Of a stretch of DNA of 64,000 nt, positions 28,874 through 37,591 are shown piece after piece. The first letter of the stretch is position 1, and each line of letters starts with the position of its first letter. The stretch is from the NCBI GenBank assembly GCA_019058365.1, contig JAHPZE010000008.1, positions 64,001 through 128,000 on the forward strand. The letters run 5' to 3'. The notes beneath the pieces were generated by a model. That model was not told the DNA's origin. It saw only the letters and a program-made list of their open reading frames with translations, and did no database searches. Made by a program: the position numbers and the translations under genes. This DNA comes from Promethearchaeota archaeon. Its GTDB lineage: Archaea > Asgardarchaeota > Lokiarchaeia > Sigyniarchaeales > SOKP01.

Positions 28874-29641
28874 ATGTTTTTTATGAATTTTGAAGAAAAA
28901 ATTGATTTAGCTGCTAAATGGATAGCTGAATCAGAGCGATTGGTGGTCTTTACTGGTGCTGGAATTTCTACTGATAGTGGATTACCAGATTATAGAGGCC
29001 CAGATGGCGTTTGGACTCGTCGTGATAAGGGATTACCACCCCCTAAGTCAAAAGTTGCATGGGATCAAGTGAAACCGAATCCTAATCATCATGCAATTGT
29101 AGAGTTAATGAAAATGGGAAAGCTTAATTATCTAATTTCCCAAAATGTAGATGGATTACATGCTAAATCAGGGATTCCTTTTGATATATTAGCCGAACTT
29201 CATGGGAATCAATTTTTCATGAAATGTTTATCATGTAATAAAAAAATGTTATTCGAAGAAGCTAGTTGGGACAAAGATGTATGGGGTCCAGGATATAGAA
29301 CACATCCAGTTCGAGAAGGTCAGCCAAAATGCCCCTTCTGTGAAGGAAGAATAATTTCGAGTATTGTTAATTTCGGTGATCCATTACCATATGACGAACT
29401 CGAAGAATCGATACAACGATCTCAAAATTCTGATGTGTTTTTTGTAATTGGGTCATCCTTAGTAGTTACACCTGCAGCAAATATGCCAGGGATTGCAAAA
29501 CAAAATGGTGCTAAACTGATTCTTTTAAATAAAGGTGATACTCCTTATGATCACGCAGCAGATATAAGGTTTGATAACTTAATTGAAGAAGTACTCCCAC
29601 CAATAATGGAAAAGGTAAAAGAAATAGTAAATAAAAATTAA
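28874..29641 (+). CDS. Sir2-family NAD-dependent protein deacylase
   Basis: TGAGISTDSGLPDYRG, SQNVDGLH, ELHGN, two CxxC, GSSLVV. Confidence 0.95.
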   Translation: MFFMNFEEKIDLAAKWIAESERLVVFTGAGISTDSGLPDYRGPDGVWTRRDKGLPPPKSKVAWDQVKPNPNHHAIVELMKMGKLNYLISQNVDGLHAKSGIPFDILAELHGNQFFMKCLSCNKKMLFEEASWDKDVWGPGYRTHPVREGQPKCPFCEGRIISSIVNFGDPLPYDELEESIQRSQNSDVFFVIGSSLVVTPAANMPGIAKQNGAKLILLNKGDTPYDHAADIRFDNLIEEVLPPIMEKVKEIVNKN

Positions 29642-29692
29642 TAATTTATTGCTCTGTTTTATTTTTTTTTATTATATGATGTGATATTTTCA

Positions 29693-29830
29693 ATGAGAAC
29701 AATAGATGAAAGTCAGATAAAAAAGATAAAAGAATTTATTTTTAAAAATGGTAGACTCCTTGAAAGAAAATTATTTTCATCAAATGAATCCAAATGTAAA
29801 GAGTTCGTATGCTTTTTTAAAAGAATATAA
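29693..29830 (+). pseudogene. Probable truncated gene remnant (MRTIDESQIKKIKEFIFKNGRLLERKLF...)
   Basis: ATG preceded by GTGA; protein-like N-terminus resembling the 'F...N.R.LER.LF' start of longer alpha-barrel hypothetical proteins, ends after 45 aa just before the repeat/island region. Confidence 0.4.
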
Positions 29831-29858
29831 TGTTGAACTGTTTGACGGGCGGATTAGT

Positions 29859-29924
29859 TAAAGAAATCCTAATATCCAAAGAAGTAAAGAAATCCTAATA
29901 TCCAAAGAAGTAAAGAAATCCTAA
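29859..29924. repeat. 26-bp tandem repeat, 2.5 copies (TAAAGAAATCCTAATATCCAAAGAAG)
   Basis: Units at 29859, 29885 and a partial one at 29911, no spacers. Confidence 0.92.
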
Positions 29925-29936
29925 ACCTTAATCTAC

Positions 29937-30260
29937 TCATTTCAATACTCCTATCCATTTTAAAAATCTGAAAACAAGAATTCCAATTAGTATAATACAT
30001 ATCAGAATATCTGTAATTGTTAACAAATCGGTGCTTGCTAGTAAAAATATTCCTAATAACCATCCAATGATATAAGAAGTTGCCCAGTGAGGCATTTCTA
30101 GAATAAGAATTATTATGCCAACTATGCTTGATATATCAAAGATCCAAATGAAATCTCTTAAATCTGTACTGGCAAAAATGGATATAATTATTGGAGGTAT
30201 TATTCCCACAACTATTTCCGAGATAGCTGCATCAGCACTTTCATCAAACTTACTAGACAT
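29937..30260 (-). CDS. Small integral membrane protein (~4 TM)
   Basis: Hydrophobic segments throughout; ATG start. Confidence 0.65.
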   Translation of the reverse strand: MSSKFDESADAAISEIVVGIIPPIIISIFASTDLRDFIWIFDISSIVGIIILILEMPHWATSYIIGWLLGIFLLASTDLLTITDILICIILIGILVFRFLKWIGVLK

Positions 30261-30295
30261 GATTATGAAACACTCTTTAAATTTTATAAAACTGG

Positions 30296-30342
30296 GATTT
30301 TGATAATAATATAAGAAATAGAAGATATTAATGTTATTGAAG
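30296..30342 (+). repeat. 47-bp direct repeat, left copy
   Basis: GATTTTGATAATAATATAAGAAATAGAAGATATTAATGTTATTGAAG; one mismatch to 35671-35717. Confidence 0.93.
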
Positions 30343-30382
30343 TGGAAATGGATTTAAAACTACATAAAAAAGAGAAAAAATC

Positions 30383-30580
30383 ATGAAGCAAAAATTAAAC
30401 ACACTTGATTTAGAATTTTTATTTACATATTATGACGATCTCAGAAGTGATCATTTTGAAGCAAGAACAAAATTTAAGAAATTCATATTATCTCTTAGGA
30501 TCAAACACTTGAAGAAGATCATAGATAAAGCTGTAAGTAAAGGAGAACCTCTTCCTTATTTATTTATAGTTTTTGTTTAA
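30383..30580 (+). CDS. Small hypothetical protein
   Basis: 65-aa ORF with ATG and T-rich tract downstream. Confidence 0.5.
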   Translation: MKQKLNTLDLEFLFTYYDDLRSDHFEARTKFKKFILSLRIKHLKKIIDKAVSKGEPLPYLFIVFV

Positions 30581-30684
30581 TTTTTAGATTAGATTTTAAA
30601 ATAAAAAAAAATTTTAACTAAGTCATATTTATATATAAAAATGATTTTCCAGATGCATGAGTTTCGTGCAATAATCCCAACCCT

Positions 30685-33105
30685 GTGTTTGACATGAGCG
30701 AAGAAAAACTAGCAATACATAAAAGAAAAGTAGAAGCGATCTCTGAAATGGTTAGAAATGCGTACGATAACGCGAAGCCGGGGGAATATTTCTCTCTAAA
30801 AAAGGCGAGCGTTTCCCACATGGCTCCACAGCCGGATAATCCGATCTATAGTGACAAGCCGATAGACGTGAAGTCACTTACAGACATTATTGAGATAAAC
30901 ACGGATACAAGGACGTGTATTGCAGAAGCAGGGGTTACTTTTGTTAGGCTTGCAAGAGAAACCTTAAAGTATGGGCTCGTACCGCAATGTGTTTCCGAGC
31001 TCAAGGGAATCACGATAGGCGGGGTAGTAGCAGGATGTTCAGTTGAATCCATGTCTTTCAAGTATGGGGGATTTTTCGATTCCTGTGAAGAAATAGAGAT
31101 TGTGACAGGAACAGGTGACATAATGTTATGCACGAAAAGTGATAACCATGAAATATTCGAGATGCTGCACGGGAGTTTCGGCACGATTGCAATCATCACG
31201 CTCCTGAAGTTCAGACTCGTTCCAGCAAAAGAGTGCGTCCGCATCGATTACATCCGTTACGAAACTTTTAGTGAATACATGGAAGCTATCAAGCAACACT
31301 ACGAAAAGCAGGATATAGAAATGATGGACGGGCTTATCTTCTCCGAGAATATGAACGTACTCTGCGTTGCCAGCTTCGTTGATGAGGAGGAAGCTCCTTA
31401 CAAGAGTAAATATTTCTACGATATTTATTACAAAAGTGCGATGAAAAAAAAACGAGACTTCCTCTTCACCATAGATTATTTTTTCAGGTATGATGCAGAT
31501 TGCCACTGGTCGATACGGAATGTTGCTGGAGGAATTTTTGAGAATAAAGTAGTCCGGTGGTTAGTAGGGCCCTTTATACTTGGATCGACAAATATTCTTA
31601 AGATCAGCGAACGATTGCCATTTTTAACTAAGAATGGGGGAGAACCGGATGTGATTGTTGATGTCTTCATACCAATCACTCACGCGGAAGAATTTTTCAA
31701 TTGGTACCTGGAGTTATTTGATTACTTCCCGGTTTGGATCGTCCCTTACCGCATGCAAAAAAACAAACTAGATGGGTACAAGTTCTACCCATGGATCAAT
31801 CAAGACATGGTCGCTCCCATCGAGGATGAACTATTCATAGATTTTGCCATCTACGGGTTCGAGCAAAAAAGAAAGGGATTTAACTTCTATAAAGCGCTAG
31901 AAGAAAAGGTTCATGAGCTCAGGGGAATGAAAACCCTGATAACTCACAATTTCTACGAGGAAGACTTGTTCTGGAAGGTATATAACAAGAAATTATACGA
32001 TAAAGTGAAAGAACGAACGGATCCCAAGAACCTATTTCGAAACTTGTACGAAAAGACGAATTATAAGAAAAAGACTGAAAAGACGAAAAGACTGAAGGTA
32101 GGTATACCACGTTCCCTGTATTTCTACAAGTATTTTCCATTATGGGAAGGAATGCTTACAAGTCTTGGTTGCGAAGTTATTGTGAGTCCAGAAACAAACA
32201 AAGAAATTCTTACCAACGGATCTAATCAATCTGCAACCGATTTATGCATTCCAATGAAGATTCATTATGGCCATGTGAATTATTTATCGACAAATCACCC
32301 CGATCTAGATTTTATATTTGCTCCAAGATTCATTAGTAATAGTAATGATCATTATTATTGTCCGAAATTTCTGATCCTTCCAGATGTCACTCAACACTCA
32401 GCAGTTTCTAATATTCCCGTTATTGAATGGGTTTTTAATGCCAGGGAACATTCAATGATGAAATCAGCAATAGATTTTGGAAAAACATTAGATAAATCAA
32501 AAGAAGAATCAAAACTTGCGTATGAGAATGGATATAAAAAACTTGAAGAATTCCATAAGTTGATTGAAGATGGAATTCTTGTTCCTGATGCACTTTACAA
32601 AATGTATCCTTTTGAAAAATATCCAAATTATAAGTTTAAGAAAAGATTTCGACCTAAACTTAACAAAGATTATGAAAATTATCCACTTAAATTAATGGTT
32701 CTTGGCCATCCATACAATACTTATGAACCAATTATTAATCATGGATTAATGGATATTCTCAAATCCAATTTTGTTGATGTTGTAAGTGTTGAAAATGCTC
32801 CAAAGGAAATCTTCTCAAGAAGAGTTGAAATTGATGATAATCTTGAAAATTTCTGGGATAATGAAGATGAATTGATGCAATTATCTGATTATGTTATCCA
32901 TAATGAAGAGATTGATGGGGGTATTTTCTTGATTTCTTTTGCATGTGGTCCTGATTCTTTAATTCAAGAATTGGTAATGCAGGATTTTGACATGAAAGAT
33001 AAGCCTTATATTGATCTCACATTAGATGAACACACTGGAGAATCTCAAATAATCACAAGAGTAGAATCTTTTGTCGAAATGATAAGGAGGAAGAAATACA
33101 AATGA
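30685..33105 (+). CDS. Fusion: DHCR24/TmsA(Rv3719)-like FAD oxidoreductase + DUF2229/2-hydroxyacyl-CoA dehydratase-like (PlsA/PlsR-type) domains
   Basis: N-part ELKGITIGG..AGCSVESMSFKYG, LHGSFGT, YFFRYDAD, DPKNLFRNLYEKT; C-part KVGIPRSL, DLCIPMKIHYGHV, YYCPKF, LGHPYN, SFACGPDS, LTLDEHTGE...TRVESF. Confidence 0.85.
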   Translation: MFDMSEEKLAIHKRKVEAISEMVRNAYDNAKPGEYFSLKKASVSHMAPQPDNPIYSDKPIDVKSLTDIIEINTDTRTCIAEAGVTFVRLARETLKYGLVPQCVSELKGITIGGVVAGCSVESMSFKYGGFFDSCEEIEIVTGTGDIMLCTKSDNHEIFEMLHGSFGTIAIITLLKFRLVPAKECVRIDYIRYETFSEYMEAIKQHYEKQDIEMMDGLIFSENMNVLCVASFVDEEEAPYKSKYFYDIYYKSAMKKKRDFLFTIDYFFRYDADCHWSIRNVAGGIFENKVVRWLVGPFILGSTNILKISERLPFLTKNGGEPDVIVDVFIPITHAEEFFNWYLELFDYFPVWIVPYRMQKNKLDGYKFYPWINQDMVAPIEDELFIDFAIYGFEQKRKGFNFYKALEEKVHELRGMKTLITHNFYEEDLFWKVYNKKLYDKVKERTDPKNLFRNLYEKTNYKKKTEKTKRLKVGIPRSLYFYKYFPLWEGMLTSLGCEVIVSPETNKEILTNGSNQSATDLCIPMKIHYGHVNYLSTNHPDLDFIFAPRFISNSNDHYYCPKFLILPDVTQHSAVSNIPVIEWVFNAREHSMMKSAIDFGKTLDKSKEESKLAYENGYKKLEEFHKLIEDGILVPDALYKMYPFEKYPNYKFKKRFRPKLNKDYENYPLKLMVLGHPYNTYEPIINHGLMDILKSNFVDVVSVENAPKEIFSRRVEIDDNLENFWDNEDELMQLSDYVIHNEEIDGGIFLISFACGPDSLIQELVMQDFDMKDKPYIDLTLDEHTGESQIITRVESFVEMIRRKKYK

Positions 33106-34133
33106 ATGAACCAGAATTTATCAAGAATCTTCTTTCAGATGATGTGGATGGCAAGTTATATTTAGGAATCGATGTCGGAAGTGTCTCCACGAAATGTGCA
33201 ATAATTAATGAGAGAAGTGAATTATTGTATGCTACCTGGACCAGAAATGATGGTTCTCCCATTGTTTCTACACAAGAAAATCTAAAATACATGGAAGAAG
33301 TCCTTCCCGATAACATCGAAAAAAGTATTTGTGGTGTGGGGACAACAGGTTCCGCTAGGTATTTAATAAAAGCTCTTATCGGTGCAGATGTAGCAAAACC
33401 TGAAATAATTGCTCATGCAATTGGAGCTTCAACTTATACCCCTGACGTGAGAACAATTCTTGAAATCGGGGGACAGGACAGCAAAGTTATATTGATGAAA
33501 AATGGCATCGTAACAGATTTTAACATGAACAGTGTTTGTGCTGCGGGAACTGGCTCGTTTCTTGATCACCAAGCTATTCGGCTGAAGGTTCCAATTGAGG
33601 AATTTGGGGATTACGCTCTTCGGGCAGAAGAGGAGGTTTCAATTGCAGGACGATGCACAGTTTTTGCCGAATCTGATATGATTAGTAAACAACAAGAAGG
33701 ATATTCTAAAGAATCAATTATCAAGGGATTGTGTAAAGCTCTTGTTAGAAACTACTTGAATAATGTTTGCAAAGGCAAGAAACTCTCCCCTCCTTTTGTA
33801 TTTCAGGGGGGAGTTGCAGCAAATTCCGGAATAAAAAATGCTTTTGAAGAAGAATTGGGGTATGAAGTCATTATTCATGAAAATTTTTATGTAATGGGAG
33901 CATTTGGTTCAGCTATTTTGGCAAAGGAACATGTAAATGGACAAATATCTTCTTTTCATGGCCTAAAAGTTAGTGAAATGAACTTGGCTACAGGTTCATT
34001 TGTCTGTCCTGATTGTCCAAATAGATGTACAGTTAAATACATTGTCAGAGAAGAAGATAAAAGTAGAGTAACTGGAAGAGAAAAGGATGATAGGATATTT
34101 GCGCGATGGAATAGTAGGTGCGGTAAATGGTAA
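33102..34133 (+). CDS. CoA-substrate activase ATPase (BadF/BadG/BcrA/BcrD, HgdC-like) with PlsA-type C-terminal Cys motif
   Basis: LGIDVGSVSTK, TTGSAR, EIGGQDSK, MNSVCAAGTGSFLD, RCTVFAESD, FQGGVAAN, FVCPDCPNRC...SRCGKW. Confidence 0.92.
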   Translation: MNEPEFIKNLLSDDVDGKLYLGIDVGSVSTKCAIINERSELLYATWTRNDGSPIVSTQENLKYMEEVLPDNIEKSICGVGTTGSARYLIKALIGADVAKPEIIAHAIGASTYTPDVRTILEIGGQDSKVILMKNGIVTDFNMNSVCAAGTGSFLDHQAIRLKVPIEEFGDYALRAEEEVSIAGRCTVFAESDMISKQQEGYSKESIIKGLCKALVRNYLNNVCKGKKLSPPFVFQGGVAANSGIKNAFEEELGYEVIIHENFYVMGAFGSAILAKEHVNGQISSFHGLKVSEMNLATGSFVCPDCPNRCTVKYIVREEDKSRVTGREKDDRIFARWNSRCGKW

Positions 34134-35461
34134 ATGTTAGACTTTCATTTTCACGAATGGGTTGGAGCTATATTTTTTTCAAAGGTTTATTCCATGATCT
34201 TCCTGGTATTGAGGTTGTTGAACCTCCTCTAGTAAACACTGAAATCGTTAGTGAAGGAGTTAAAAATTCTCCTGAATTCGTTTGTTTTCCATTTAAAGTC
34301 ATTCTTGGTGAAATGATAAACCTGTATCGTAATTATGATGTTAAAGATTTTGCGATGATTGCTGACTACGGCCCATGTCGAGCAGGAATTTATGCTGTCG
34401 TCCAGAAAAGAATCTTGAAAAATATGGGATTCAAGGATGTTAGAATGTTTTATCTACGTCAAGATGATTTTCGAAATCTTGAATGGCTAAGGGTATTTCG
34501 TGATTTAGAAAAAAGAACAGGAAGAAAATTTGATGACTATAAAATTTTAAGAAACACACTCTTGTTCTTGGTCAAAGCATACTATGTTGAAAGAATAAGC
34601 CATATTGAAGGACTTGTTAGATGTCGAGAAAAAAACAAAGCAATGACTACCAAAGTAGTTCATGCTTTGATGAATTTACTTGATAGCGAAAATAATTTGA
34701 TGAAATTATCTAATTTTGATAGAACGATAGATGAAAATTTTCGCAAGATTCCTATTGACAAGGAAATGGAACCTTTGAGGGTTTGTTATACTGGGGAAAT
34801 CCAAGTCATGTTGGAGAAATGGGTTAATTATGATCTGATGGGAGAATTAGGCGTCATGGGTATCGAGGTTCACAAGCAGTATGATGTCTTTGATTGGGTC
34901 ATGTACAAACTTGACGCCAGCAAACGAAGAAGACGACTTGAACGTGTTGCAAGAAAGTATATTCCAATGGATATTGGGGGGGAGGCTGTGTGGAATATGG
35001 GAAGTTATCTTGAGTCTCAAGAAAAAGGTTTTGATGGTTTTGTCCATATATTCCCATTTACTTGCATGCCTGAAATATCCCTCATGGGAATGTTAGAAGC
35101 TGAGAAAAACATGGACAAGTTTTTCATGCCCCAAATTCATATTAGTCTTGATGGAAGTTCTGGTTTTGAGGGACTTAGAACAAGAGTCGAGGCATTTCAT
35201 GATTTAATGGTTGGTAACAAGGAAACTAATCCCTTGTTTAGAGATGTCAAGTATGTGGTCCCGGATGAAATAAAAAATATATATTTTAAGCCGAAATCCA
35301 ATTTTGAATATTTCATATCTAGTATTGAAACCCCAATGTCAAAGGTTTTAACAATGCTGAATCCATCAAAGAAATTAGATGTAGGATTCGCCCTTAAGAA
35401 TGGACTCGAGTTTTTTTCAAGAAATTCGTTTTTTAGTATCGGATCTCTTTTTAACCTTTGA
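34127..35461 (+). CDS. 2-hydroxyacyl-CoA dehydratase-like Fe-S subunit (PlsR/Ger reductase-type domain)
   Basis: SPEFVCFPFK..LG, GPCRAGIY, TGEIQV, IGGE, PFTCMPE, SLDGSSG.EGLRTRVEAF. Confidence 0.85.
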   Translation: MVNVRLSFSRMGWSYIFFKGLFHDLPGIEVVEPPLVNTEIVSEGVKNSPEFVCFPFKVILGEMINLYRNYDVKDFAMIADYGPCRAGIYAVVQKRILKNMGFKDVRMFYLRQDDFRNLEWLRVFRDLEKRTGRKFDDYKILRNTLLFLVKAYYVERISHIEGLVRCREKNKAMTTKVVHALMNLLDSENNLMKLSNFDRTIDENFRKIPIDKEMEPLRVCYTGEIQVMLEKWVNYDLMGELGVMGIEVHKQYDVFDWVMYKLDASKRRRRLERVARKYIPMDIGGEAVWNMGSYLESQEKGFDGFVHIFPFTCMPEISLMGMLEAEKNMDKFFMPQIHISLDGSSGFEGLRTRVEAFHDLMVGNKETNPLFRDVKYVVPDEIKNIYFKPKSNFEYFISSIETPMSKVLTMLNPSKKLDVGFALKNGLEFFSRNSFFSIGSLFNL

Positions 35462-35476
35462 GAGGCTATTTTGTTA

Positions 35477-35706
35477 TGAAAGTTTCTTTTCCAAATATGG
35501 ACAATTCGTGGCCGGCGTTCAAGACTTTCTTCGAGTGTATGGGTACCGAGGTGATTCTGCCAGATCCCACGAATCGTAACGATGTGAAGATTGGCGTGAA
35601 ACACAGCCCTAAGTTCGTCTGTTTTCCCTTCAAAACTACCTTGGGAGATTTCGTGAACGTTATCGAGAAAGATTTTGATAATAATATAAGAAATAGAATA
35701 TATTAA
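35477..35706 (+). pseudogene. N-terminal fragment of a second PlsR-type paralogue, truncated at the direct repeat
   Basis: MKVSFPNM...GVKHSPKFVCFPFKTTLG parallels the start of 34127-35461; coding similarity ends at 35670, where the repeat begins. Confidence 0.8.
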
Positions 35707-35717
35707 TGTTATTGAAG
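35671..35717 (+). repeat. 47-bp direct repeat, right copy
   Basis: GATTTTGATAATAATATAAGAAATAGAATATATTAATGTTATTGAAG. Confidence 0.93.
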
Positions 35718-35932
35718 AATCATTCAAGGAAGTTAATCCTCACCCATATTAACTGTGAGAGTTTTTCCGATAAAAAATATTTTAAATTTATGAAATTCTC
35801 GTTTATTTTAGAAAATTACAAAAAATCGACTTTTGTAGGTTCGATGAAACCTTTTCAAATTGATTTTTGAAAATTTCCAGTTAATTTTTGAAAGTTACAC
35901 GTTATATTAATGTTTTATATAAAAAAGTAATT

Positions 35933-37591
35933 CTATTTTATTCTTGCATAAATTTCTCTATTCCTATCAAATTCTTTTACAATTTTTTTTCCTTCTTTAT
36001 TAGATAATGATAAATTAATCTCTGCCTTTCGACTTAGGGAGCCAGTAAAAATTTCCTCTTTACCAGAAAAAACAGCAATATTTTGACTGGCAAATTTTGG
36101 GCTTGCTCTTAAAATAACTTTATCTAGCATTATTTCAATATTAAGTTCAATTCTTTCTTTATTACCTTTTACTTTCCCATATCTAGTTAGCTCCCTAAAC
36201 TGTTCCGATTTATACTTTGATTCTTTTAGCTTTATGGGATTTACAACTACATCATTTCCAAAATTGTAAATCTCAAATTCTAAGCGATCATTTTTAAAAT
36301 TTCTTACTTCTACCACAGGTCTTGCTAAATCTTTATCTCTGAAACCATATGGGACCTTAACAGTCATTTTTAATACAAAAACTGTTGAAATATCTCCACC
36401 TTCAATGAAAATTATTGTATCTATAATTGATGGAAGCATTCCAAGCTCTATTCGACCTATAAATCTTTGAATGGCATCTATTGCCGAAGATGAATGAACT
36501 ACACCAACCATCCCTACTCCAGATAAGCGAAAATCGGAATAAATTTGAAAATCTTTTGTTGTTCTAACTTCATCAAAAATGGTAAAATCGGGTCTTACAA
36601 GTAAAAGAATATCTGCAGAATTCTCAAGGTTGCCTTCTAGTTTAGTATATTGAGTTATTTCTGGTTCTACTTGTAAATCTCTAACACTTTCAAGTGTTTT
36701 TATTACTTTCTCTTGTTTCAAATAGTAATTTGCTAATGCTGCTGAAAATGTTGATTTTCCCGCTCCTGGTGGACCTGCTACAAGTATTCCTTCCGCTTTA
36801 TGCAATCTTTTTTGTAACCTACTATCAATTGAATAATCAGATAATTGTAAACTTACTAGAGGTCGTGCTGCCGTAATTTCAACATCCTTCGAGAAAGGAG
36901 GGCGTGTAATAACTATCCTAAATTCTCTCATTTGTGCCACCACAGCACCTTCCTTTTCAATCTCAATAAATGAATGTTGATCTTCTCTAGTCACTTCTGC
37001 AATCTCCATTGCAATATCCTCTATCAACTTATTTGATATTGGTTCATCGCTGATTTTTTGTAATCGCCAACTTCCGGGAGAGCCTTTTTTAGCATAAGGA
37101 GGTATATTTTGTTTGAGATGGACACTCATCGTTTCCTCATCAAAATATTCTAATATCTTTAAAGATATAGGTAAGAGTTCTTCCTTTGATTTTTTTTCCC
37201 AAGCAAAAAGGACTTCTAATCCTTCAAATTCTCCGACATCTCCTTGTATTCTATCTGCGGTTATTAAAATAGCATTATTCTCTTTTGCATACTCTCTAAT
37301 CAAAGCATCCAATTCTCCTCCTGGAGCCATTTTGATTTCTTCTCTGGAAGGGCGTTTACCTACGATGTGTAATATAATTTCGCCTTTATCATGTAGATTT
37401 CTTAATTCTTTTAGAACTCTTAAACCAAAAAATCCAATATCTTTATGAATATTAGTCCTATACTCGACTTCAGCAACAACTATGTTTGAAATAAAAATTT
37501 CTGGTTTTTCTCCTAACTCTCCATCCTCAATTAAGGTAAGAATTTGACCATTAAAAATTACTGATGTATCACAAACAAATTTATCTGACAT
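35933..37591 (-). CDS. PIN-domain ATPase (PINA, VirB11-like ATPase)
   Basis: VCDTSV PIN start, GELDALIR, TMSVHLK, GPPGAGKSTF, LLVRPDFTIFDEVR, GMVGVVH. Confidence 0.92.
   Translation of the reverse strand: MSDKFVCDTSVIFNGQILTLIEDGELGEKPEIFISNIVVAEVEYRTNIHKDIGFFGLRVLKELRNLHDKGEIILHIVGKRPSREEIKMAPGGELDALIREYAKENNAILITADRIQGDVGEFEGLEVLFAWEKKSKEELLPISLKILEYFDEETMSVHLKQNIPPYAKKGSPGSWRLQKISDEPISNKLIEDIAMEIAEVTREDQHSFIEIEKEGAVVAQMREFRIVITRPPFSKDVEITAARPLVSLQLSDYSIDSRLQKRLHKAEGILVAGPPGAGKSTFSAALANYYLKQEKVIKTLESVRDLQVEPEITQYTKLEGNLENSADILLLVRPDFTIFDEVRTTKDFQIYSDFRLSGVGMVGVVHSSSAIDAIQRFIGRIELGMLPSIIDTIIFIEGGDISTVFVLKMTVKVPYGFRDKDLARPVVEVRNFKNDRLEFEIYNFGNDVVVNPIKLKESKYKSEQFRELTRYGKVKGNKERIELNIEIMLDKVILRASPKFASQNIAVFSGKEEIFTGSLSRKAEINLSLSNKEGKKIVKEFDRNREIYARIK

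Follow-up and report, generated by a model that had tools for sequence, protein, structure and literature searches.

Can an Asgard archaeon convert fatty-acyl esters of glycerolipids into saturated alkyl ethers, and which enzyme would reduce the vinyl ether formed on the way? This question is raised by a locus of four open reading frames (ORFs) in a 64,000-nt stretch of a Promethearchaeota genome (assembly GCA_019058365.1, contig JAHPZE010000008.1, positions 64,001 to 128,000), here called the window, to which all positions refer. The locus encodes a flavoprotein with a flavin adenine dinucleotide (FAD) domain fused to a first reductase module (Red1), an activase ATPase, a second reductase module (Red2) and a short remnant. 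An earlier note, made from the letters of the window, had described it as a PlsA/PlsR- or Ger-like lipid system with a DHCR24/TmsA-type reductase. For this cassette we propose an ATP-driven step from ester to vinyl ether, followed by flavin-dependent saturation to the alkyl ether; judged from the genes, this reading has somewhat less than an even chance of being right. It fits because the FAD family is linked to PlsA/Ger-type genes twice and independently, because relatives of the reductase stand beside acyltransferase genes, and because DHCR24 and BfaA act on C=C bonds. It further fits a former report, in which PlsA homologues with a single activase (B) domain were linked with plasmalogen production and the enzyme leading from vinyl ether to alkyl ether was called 'yet-unknown' (PMC13274423).

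The first linkage is the fusion, the second was found in Myxococcota. In four of 80 loci of the FAD family (L055, L061, L106 and L113, all Myxococcota) a complete PlsAR/Ger-type gene lies upstream on the same strand and ends 160-220 bp before the FAD gene; a fifth locus falls into the same PlsAR neighbour cluster. The PlsAR/Ger frames comprise 1450-1510 aa with two B domains, DUF2229 and a PlsR-like part. Three more species of that order, with FAD orthologues of 83-89% identity, carry the same gene pair, which was not found in five species of the order with FAD paralogues of 42-46% identity. The pair was checked in seven species; the FAD proteins of Myxococcota form one well-supported clade (nine entries in the FAD tree), far from the fused clade of Asgard archaea. 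This adjacency is a second, independent linkage. Among the neighbours recurring in the 80 loci PlsAR is the only functionally specific one, the others being ABC ATPases, kinases and similar proteins.

A lipid context was also observed in Asgard genomes. Among the closest unfused relatives, L019 (57% identity) has a PlsC-type acyltransferase gene that lies directly upstream of Red1 and overlaps it by 4 nt, and in L020 and L021 two acyltransferase genes precede Red1. In the genome of the window all three PF01553 domains adjoin PlsA/Ger-like genes, at a locus on contig C21: a 558-aa protein with a double PF01553 domain is encoded 20 bp from the resident Red1 gene, and the third domain just downstream of the resident activase gene. 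A PlsY homologue is present on contig C15. The acyltransferase neighbours of relatives and paralogues and the PlsAR/Ger neighbour in Myxococcota are evidence beyond the earlier note and strengthen its lipid reading, whereas the chemistry it suggested stays putative.

The four ORFs are co-oriented, with successive overlaps of 4 or 7 nt. All motifs quoted before (KVGIPR, SFACGPDS, DEHTGE, SPEFVCFPFK, GPCR, PFTCMPE) were recovered in the translations, as was the activase tail FVCPDCPNRC...SRC, and a Pfam search of the four proteins agreed with the proposed domain inventory. The 806-aa protein matched FAD_binding_4 (PF01565; 51.5 bits, within residues 1-465) and DUF2229 (PF09989; 153 bits, cut-off 29.4, residues 471-702); its HGD-D tail reached 24.9 bits, under the cut-off of 28.4. 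BcrAD_BadFG (PF01869) was matched by the 343-aa protein with 160 bits, and the NCBIfam match of this protein is the generic acyl-CoA dehydratase activase domain TIGR00241. For the 444-aa protein the DUF2229 and HGD-D matches were weak and both sub-threshold; the 82-aa ORF had a single match, to the N-terminus of DUF2229 (36.6 bits). As control, the domain search gave T. maritima and L. lactis as carriers of PF09989.

The putative cluster sites are conserved. Red1 cysteines C521, C559 and C754 were invariant in 116 homologues, including proteins of the BBD type, which have two activation domains and one reduction domain. The 444-aa protein aligned with the 470-aa PlsR-like protein of the genome and with the C-terminal part of myxobacterial PlsAR, so that a second, PlsR-type reductase subunit is present; in this alignment C53, C84 and C313 were invariant. 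In the activase the cluster cysteines C146 and C185 were invariant, and the C-terminal four-cysteine motif (C302, C305, C309, C340) recurs in the second B domain of BBD proteins but not in the first. Domain set (PF09989, PF06050, PF01869) and cofactor sites are intact, the invariant cysteines being common with BBD-type PlsA/Ger homologues. Compared with an 89% identical relative, the ratio of non-synonymous to synonymous substitution rates was 0.15 for the FAD domain, 0.25 for Red1, 0.11 for the activase and 0.20 for Red2, which indicates purifying selection on all four parts. The truncated paralogue of the earlier note is what is left of a Red2 gene of the resident type, since its identity is 63% with the paralogue on C21 and 44% with Red2 of the cassette. 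The longest form of the first ORF starts with GTG at 30685; two relatives start three codons later, at ATG 30694 (MSEEK...). In two other genomes (G014 and G011) an upstream ATG lengthens the fused protein by 11 residues.

The fusion described in the earlier note proved to be real. It was found in frame in three further assemblies of different sources (97%, 89% and 89% identity), hence in four independent assemblies. Contigs from RNA libraries of two studies bridge the junction of FAD domain and Red1, and DNA contigs of another (mangrove) study cover it piecewise with overlap; no indels were seen in these metagenome and metatranscriptome contigs. Thus, the fusion is not an assembly error. The RNA-library contigs of the two studies cover the cassette and give a weak hint of expression. 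The expected rarity was seen as well: among 1.84 billion representative proteins searched with HMMER no other fusion of FAD domain and DUF2229 was detected, and the known one is confined to one narrow clade. Long matches in this search were FAD-FAD tandems (~900 aa) or Red1-Red2 fusions (~710-770 aa). Five proteins of ~890-916 aa (P0257, P0267, P0274, P0280, P0298) are tandem pairs of the DHCR24-like flavoprotein. Unfused intermediates with a flavoprotein gene beside Red1 were not found in the closest relatives of the cassette. In L017, the unfused locus closest to the cassette, the gene before Red1 (L017:657-2228) encodes an unrelated 523-aa protein without Pfam match, possibly a further partner of the split reductase.

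For residues 1-465 AlphaFold predicted a VAO-type two-domain flavoprotein fold (pLDDT 91.9, pTM 0.92). The nearest solved folds found with Foldseek were cytokinin oxidases and DprE1 (TM ~0.65, 13-16% identity, probability 1.00). Closest in sequence are standalone proteins of ~450 aa from Sigynarchaeota and other Asgard archaea (62% identity), and relatives from bacteria, the Candidate Phyla Radiation (CPR) and DPANN share 42-48%. The fused copy is the sole member of the family in the genome. Since it nests within the Asgard standalone clade of the FAD tree, the FAD domain is evidently of Asgard origin. P0022, a 563-aa protein of the anaerobic protist Anaeramoeba flamelloides, is 56-59% identical to the Asgard flavoprotein and also nests within the Asgard clade, which suggests a transfer between Asgard archaea and an anaerobic eukaryote. 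Some Patescibacteria, Woesearchaeota and Nanoarchaeia with very small genomes and no DUF2229 gene (L041, L074, L087, L107) also have members of the family, which perhaps tailor scavenged host lipids there.

The likeness to DHCR24 and TmsA, also part of the earlier note, stands in part. Closeness to DHCR24 is read from automatic names, 24-dehydrocholesterol reductase for P0022 and Delta(24)-sterol reductase for the nearest Atlas cluster. Both DHCR24 and BfaA/TmsA resemble the cassette flavoprotein in the VAO-type FAD domain of ~450 aa. They are reductases of lipid C=C bonds, and DHCR24 and BfaA are NADPH-dependent. The cassette flavoprotein differs from DHCR24 by the lack of an N-terminal membrane anchor, its residues 2-29 forming a charged helix without hydrophobic segment, and of sterol genes. 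BfaA/TmsA is described as 10-methylene fatty-acyl reductase (PMC5660069); the cfa-type methyltransferase partner of this enzyme was found neither in the cassette and its annotated neighbours nor in ten annotated recurrent neighbour clusters of the 80 family loci.

In the proposed mechanism an activase homodimer would bridge a [4Fe-4S] cluster, and ATP hydrolysis would drive a low-potential electron into the Red1/Red2 heterodimer, in which each subunit is predicted to hold a three-cysteine cluster site. The substrate would be an acyl ester on a glycerolipid supplied by PlsC/PlsY-type acyltransferases of the same genomes. Reduction and dehydration of the ester carbonyl would give the 1-alk-1'-enyl (vinyl) ether. 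Its C=C bond would then be reduced by the tethered DHCR24-like FAD domain, probably with NAD(P)H, to yield the saturated alkyl ether. What the enzyme acts on, its two reactions and which way the flavin step runs are deduced from homology.

How closely is the cassette related to the characterised enzymes? Two further PlsA/Ger-like systems were found on contig C21 of the same genome (locus L016, G000 C21:8270-25955). One consists of a 974-aa BBD-type protein, with two activase domains and DUF2229, followed by the 470-aa PlsR-like protein; the other is split into Red1 (352 aa), Red2 (396 aa) and activase (340 aa). To this split set the cassette proteins are 43% (Red1), 43% (Red2) and 54% (activase) identical. 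In the Red1 tree the split proteins of Asgard archaea and bacteria form a group apart from the BBD group. The separating branch is ~3 substitutions per site long, with the root dividing it into two parts of 1.48, and has a support of 100 in the Shimodaira-Hasegawa-like approximate likelihood ratio test. The Red1 module of the window falls within the Asgard clade, as sister to P0393 (71%) and P0246 (57%). By its sequence the cassette belongs to the PlsA/PlsR-Ger superfamily, as a split form of three polypeptides, and is not an orthologue of the characterised enzymes. The PlsA/PlsR(Ger)-like label of the earlier note thus applies to the superfamily, not to orthology.

BBD-type proteins are widespread in Asgard archaea and ~60% identical to proteins of Thermodesulfobacteriota. 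Ger homologues of Lokiarchaeota and Heimdallarchaeota are already on record (PMC13159169), so that Ger-like genes in Asgard archaea are known; the 974-aa protein on C21 likely corresponds to this Asgard 'Ger homologue'. The Asgard host was also recognised correctly from the letters, as the homologues are named Promethearchaeota, Lokiarchaeota or Thorarchaeota and Ras/Arf GTPase genes adjoin.

PlsA/PlsR is the plasmalogen synthase of Clostridium perfringens, and a single-gene PlsA occurs in facultative anaerobes (PMC9702350, PMC12838417). By domain content, the cassette shares with it the same three families (BcrAD_BadFG activase, DUF2229-type Red1, PlsR-type Red2) and the three-cysteine sites; oxygen-sensitive, ATP-driven radical chemistry is counted as common, and the lipid context is seen in Asgard relatives. 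In contrast to the Act1-Act2-Red1 fusion of PlsA, the cassette consists of three polypeptides with a single activase domain, and its Red1 is on a deep sister branch with a 465-aa flavoprotein fused in front. Ger from Thermotoga maritima and from Desulfatibacillum alkenivorans (PMC13159169) is of the same superfamily as the cassette, and its saturated alkyl ether is also the net product proposed for the cassette. Ger, however, is a single chain of ~1400-1500 aa built on a conserved BBD core, and in E. coli it works without a flavoprotein (PMC13159169). HgdABC, HadBCI and double-cubane cluster proteins resemble the cassette in a BcrAD-type activase that injects electrons ATP-dependently into a heterodimer with cysteine-bound clusters. 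They differ in that DUF2229 is not part of those enzymes, the cassette has no CoA-transferase context and the sequence match is marginal. For the catalytic subunits the best match to 2-hydroxyacyl-CoA dehydratases was HadC (3o3m_B, E = 0.018 over 63 residues), the NCBIfam HadC model, which has a cut-off of 700 bits, gave 15 bits (E = 0.0068), and double-cubane cluster proteins matched Red1 with E = 0.09-0.22.

Several points weigh against the proposed ester-to-alkyl-ether route. It builds on a split, non-BBD branch that is so far represented by genes. The cassette proteins are 23-32% identical to the BBD protein of the own genome (Red1 23-27%), and Red1 does not branch inside the BBD-type clade but as its deep sister. 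In all producers of alkyl ethers, two activation domains joined to one reduction domain were described as a conserved feature (PMC13159169); in the cassette one activase domain stands on its own polypeptide, and Red1 carries the flavoprotein instead. Bacterial split homologues had no lipid genes in their contexts and only generic cluster names. The PlsAR of Myxococcota has two B domains, a misfit with the rule of thumb that a single B domain makes the vinyl ether. Ger alone yields saturated ethers in E. coli (PMC13159169), so that a separate saturating enzyme is not strictly needed. As for the family of the FAD domain, four of five CPR/DPANN genomes with a member have no DUF2229 gene, and the nearest Asgard standalone genes adjoin a major facilitator superfamily transporter gene, not PlsA-like genes; PlsA/Ger products are thus not the substrate of the family in every case. 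The acyl source is a further difficulty, as a ketoacyl synthase was looked for in this genome and not found. To our knowledge, cultured Asgard archaea have so far yielded isoprenoid lipids only.

The flavin step may be a different one within the same lipid pathway: an oxygen-independent desaturation of alkyl ether to vinyl ether, or saturation of another double bond, in an unsaturated acyl or an isoprenoid chain. Most of the nearest solved folds, the cytokinin oxidases and DprE1, are oxidases or dehydrogenases acting beside a heteroatom or on lipid-linked substrates, and PlsA and Ger are indistinguishable by sequence (PMC13274423). The genomes with the FAD family and without DUF2229 also argue for a substrate broader than the product of PlsA. 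We nevertheless regard this alternative as unlikely, since the named relatives DHCR24 and BfaA are reductases, an anaerobic host offers no evident acceptor for the dehydrogenation of an unactivated ether, and fusion or adjacency to an ester-reducing module favours action on the immediate product of that module.

It was also considered that the fusion has no mechanistic meaning, the two halves having been joined by chance as the cassette formed or moved and acting alone on unrelated substrates. The narrow clade to which it is confined would agree with this, as would the different GC contents of the halves (FAD 41%, Red1 32%), standalone FAD genes away from PlsA-like genes, and the linker of ~10 residues, which is Lys-rich with short repeats and contains a 9-aa duplication in P0006. 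A chance joining is decidedly improbable in view of the purifying selection on both halves, of a fused form kept through spread to at least seven species in several habitats, and of the same two families adjoining independently in Myxococcota. A non-lipid target, with the reductase acting like a 2-hydroxyacyl-CoA dehydratase or benzoyl-CoA reductase on a CoA ester or small molecule and the FAD domain reducing the enoyl product, is very improbable: the activase does fit the generic TIGR00241 model, the gene for a 3-hydroxyacyl-CoA dehydrogenase is found 2 kb upstream in this genome and bacterial split homologues lack lipid neighbours, but the DUF2229 match of Red1 (153 bits) stands against the E values for HadC and double-cubane proteins (0.018 and ~0.1-0.2), the dehydrogenase gene is outside both cassette and island, none of the contexts seen contains a CoA-transferase or ligase, and the acyltransferase linkage recurs in Asgard archaea.

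The cassette evidently spreads laterally between species of the genus. Its FAD gene was present at ≥93% protein identity in seven of 25 genomes of the genus, this one included, and the whole cassette occurs in at least seven species at six or more sites, often inside the resident lipid locus. Its nucleotide identity of 95-99% compares with 73-83% for resident lipid genes, when those of the same genomes are set against the copies of this genome. Homology to the window begins at 30661-30686 (loci L028-L035) and ends at 35463 where the contig runs through (L033). In the metagenome and metatranscriptome runs X10, X15 and X16 contigs start at 30661, have differing flanks and stop near 35470; parts of the window left uncovered by these runs are not evidence of absence.

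The sites differ between genomes. The cassette follows directly after the double acyltransferase and resident Red1 in G014 and G011, after the BBD and PlsR-like genes in G012, after SelR in a contig from JGI and after the Sir2 region in this genome. G003 carries it after a fragment of resident Red2 on contig C29 and, on contig C19, before intact resident Red2 and activase genes. In G002 it cuts into resident Red1 after codon 79 and may have replaced this gene behind the acyltransferase. There (L034; G002:C21:62029-62889) resident Red1 is unrecognisable beyond codon 79, exactly at the start of the cassette. Contigs of six genus-mates (G002:C21, G003:C29, G008:C43, G011:C68, G012:C90, G014:C192; within L028-L035) end within the first 52-208 codons of the FAD gene. 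Such ends are expected if a nearly identical cassette, present in several contexts per sample, breaks the assembly graph.

In the literature search no published description was found of the acyltransferase-tied split branch, the flavoprotein fusion, the operon of Myxococcota or the lateral spread of the cassette. The flavoprotein is a clonable candidate for the enzyme between vinyl and alkyl ether, since its family is tied to PlsA/Ger-type modules in two unrelated lineages. It is of relevance for bacterial ether lipids and for the biosynthesis of branched glycerol dialkyl glycerol tetraethers, where that enzyme was stated to be missing (PMC13274423). The Asgard genus keeps up to three PlsA/Ger-like systems: the resident ones are wired to its only PlsC-type acyltransferases, and an extra, flavoprotein-bearing system is exchanged between species. 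A wider reading holds that the DHCR24-like family is the missing anaerobic plasmenyl-to-plasmanyl reductase, recruited twice, in the Asgard fusion and the operon of Myxococcota, and that the genus makes fatty-alkyl ethers with the cassette being exchanged laterally; we consider this somewhat unlikely. If true, species of an Asgard genus would make bacterial-type fatty-alkyl ether lipids by means of a laterally exchanged cassette. The genomic findings on this genus bear on the question whether fatty-acyl or fatty-alkyl glycerolipids exist beside isoprenoid ones in close relatives of the eukaryotic ancestor.

Table 1 Positions of ORFs, modules and island features in the window
Feature	Positions	Strand	Remarks
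ORF 1, fused protein	30685-33105	+	806 aa
ORF 2, activase	33102-34133	+	343 aa
ORF 3, Red2	34127-35461	+	444 aa
ORF 4, remnant	35458-35706	+	82 aa
FAD domain, VAO-type, DHCR24-like	30685-32079	+	residues 1-465 of the fused protein; PF01565
Red1 module (DUF2229 and HGD-D tail)	32080-33105	+	residues 466-806 of the fused protein; assigned by Pfam, cysteines and tree
Single-domain activase ATPase, BcrAD_BadFG, 'B2' type	33102-34133	+	assigned by Pfam, NCBIfam and alignment
Red2 module, PlsR-like	34127-35461	+	assigned by Pfam and alignment
Red2 remnant, 82 aa	35458-35706	+	match to the DUF2229 N-terminus; last 11 codons from the right repeat copy
Shared cassette	30661-35463	+	4.8 kb; 95-99% nucleotide identity across genus-mates and other metagenomes
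Left 47-nt direct repeat	30296-30342		family D1
Right 47-nt direct repeat	35671-35717		family D1
Island absent from genus-mates	29781-35923		flanks adjoin each other in nine genomes

Around the cassette an island was recognised, an idea of the earlier note that is borne out by direct repeats, an empty site in genus-mates, GC content and the limits of nucleotide homology. The GC content of the cassette is 36.8%, that of the genome 29.5%. The two copies of the 47-nt repeat are 46/47 identical (98%), have a spacing of 5375 and are the only ones in the 4.7-Mb genome; the 5.3-kb segment bounded by them holds the cassette together with 318 bp of preceding sequence and the Red2 remnant. No integrase, transposase or recombinase gene was found within the island.

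Two joints in metagenome contigs, 30293->35673 (X10) and 30651->35774 (X1), were rejected as cassette-free alleles, as their shorter side of 20-22 letters leaves them unsupported. The empty site is shown instead by genus-mate genomes: in nine of them the genes for Sir2 (window 28874-29641) and a PIN-ATPase (35933-37591, minus strand) are directly neighbouring, in G005 at a distance of 35 bp. In these nine genomes the homology of the Sir2 side ends at 29631-29780 and that of the PIN side starts at 35923-35934, in L133 at 36234. A tandem array of three 26-nt units (TAAAGAAATCCTAATATCCAAAGAAG), of which the third is partial, was observed in the part of the island that precedes the cassette (29859-29936).

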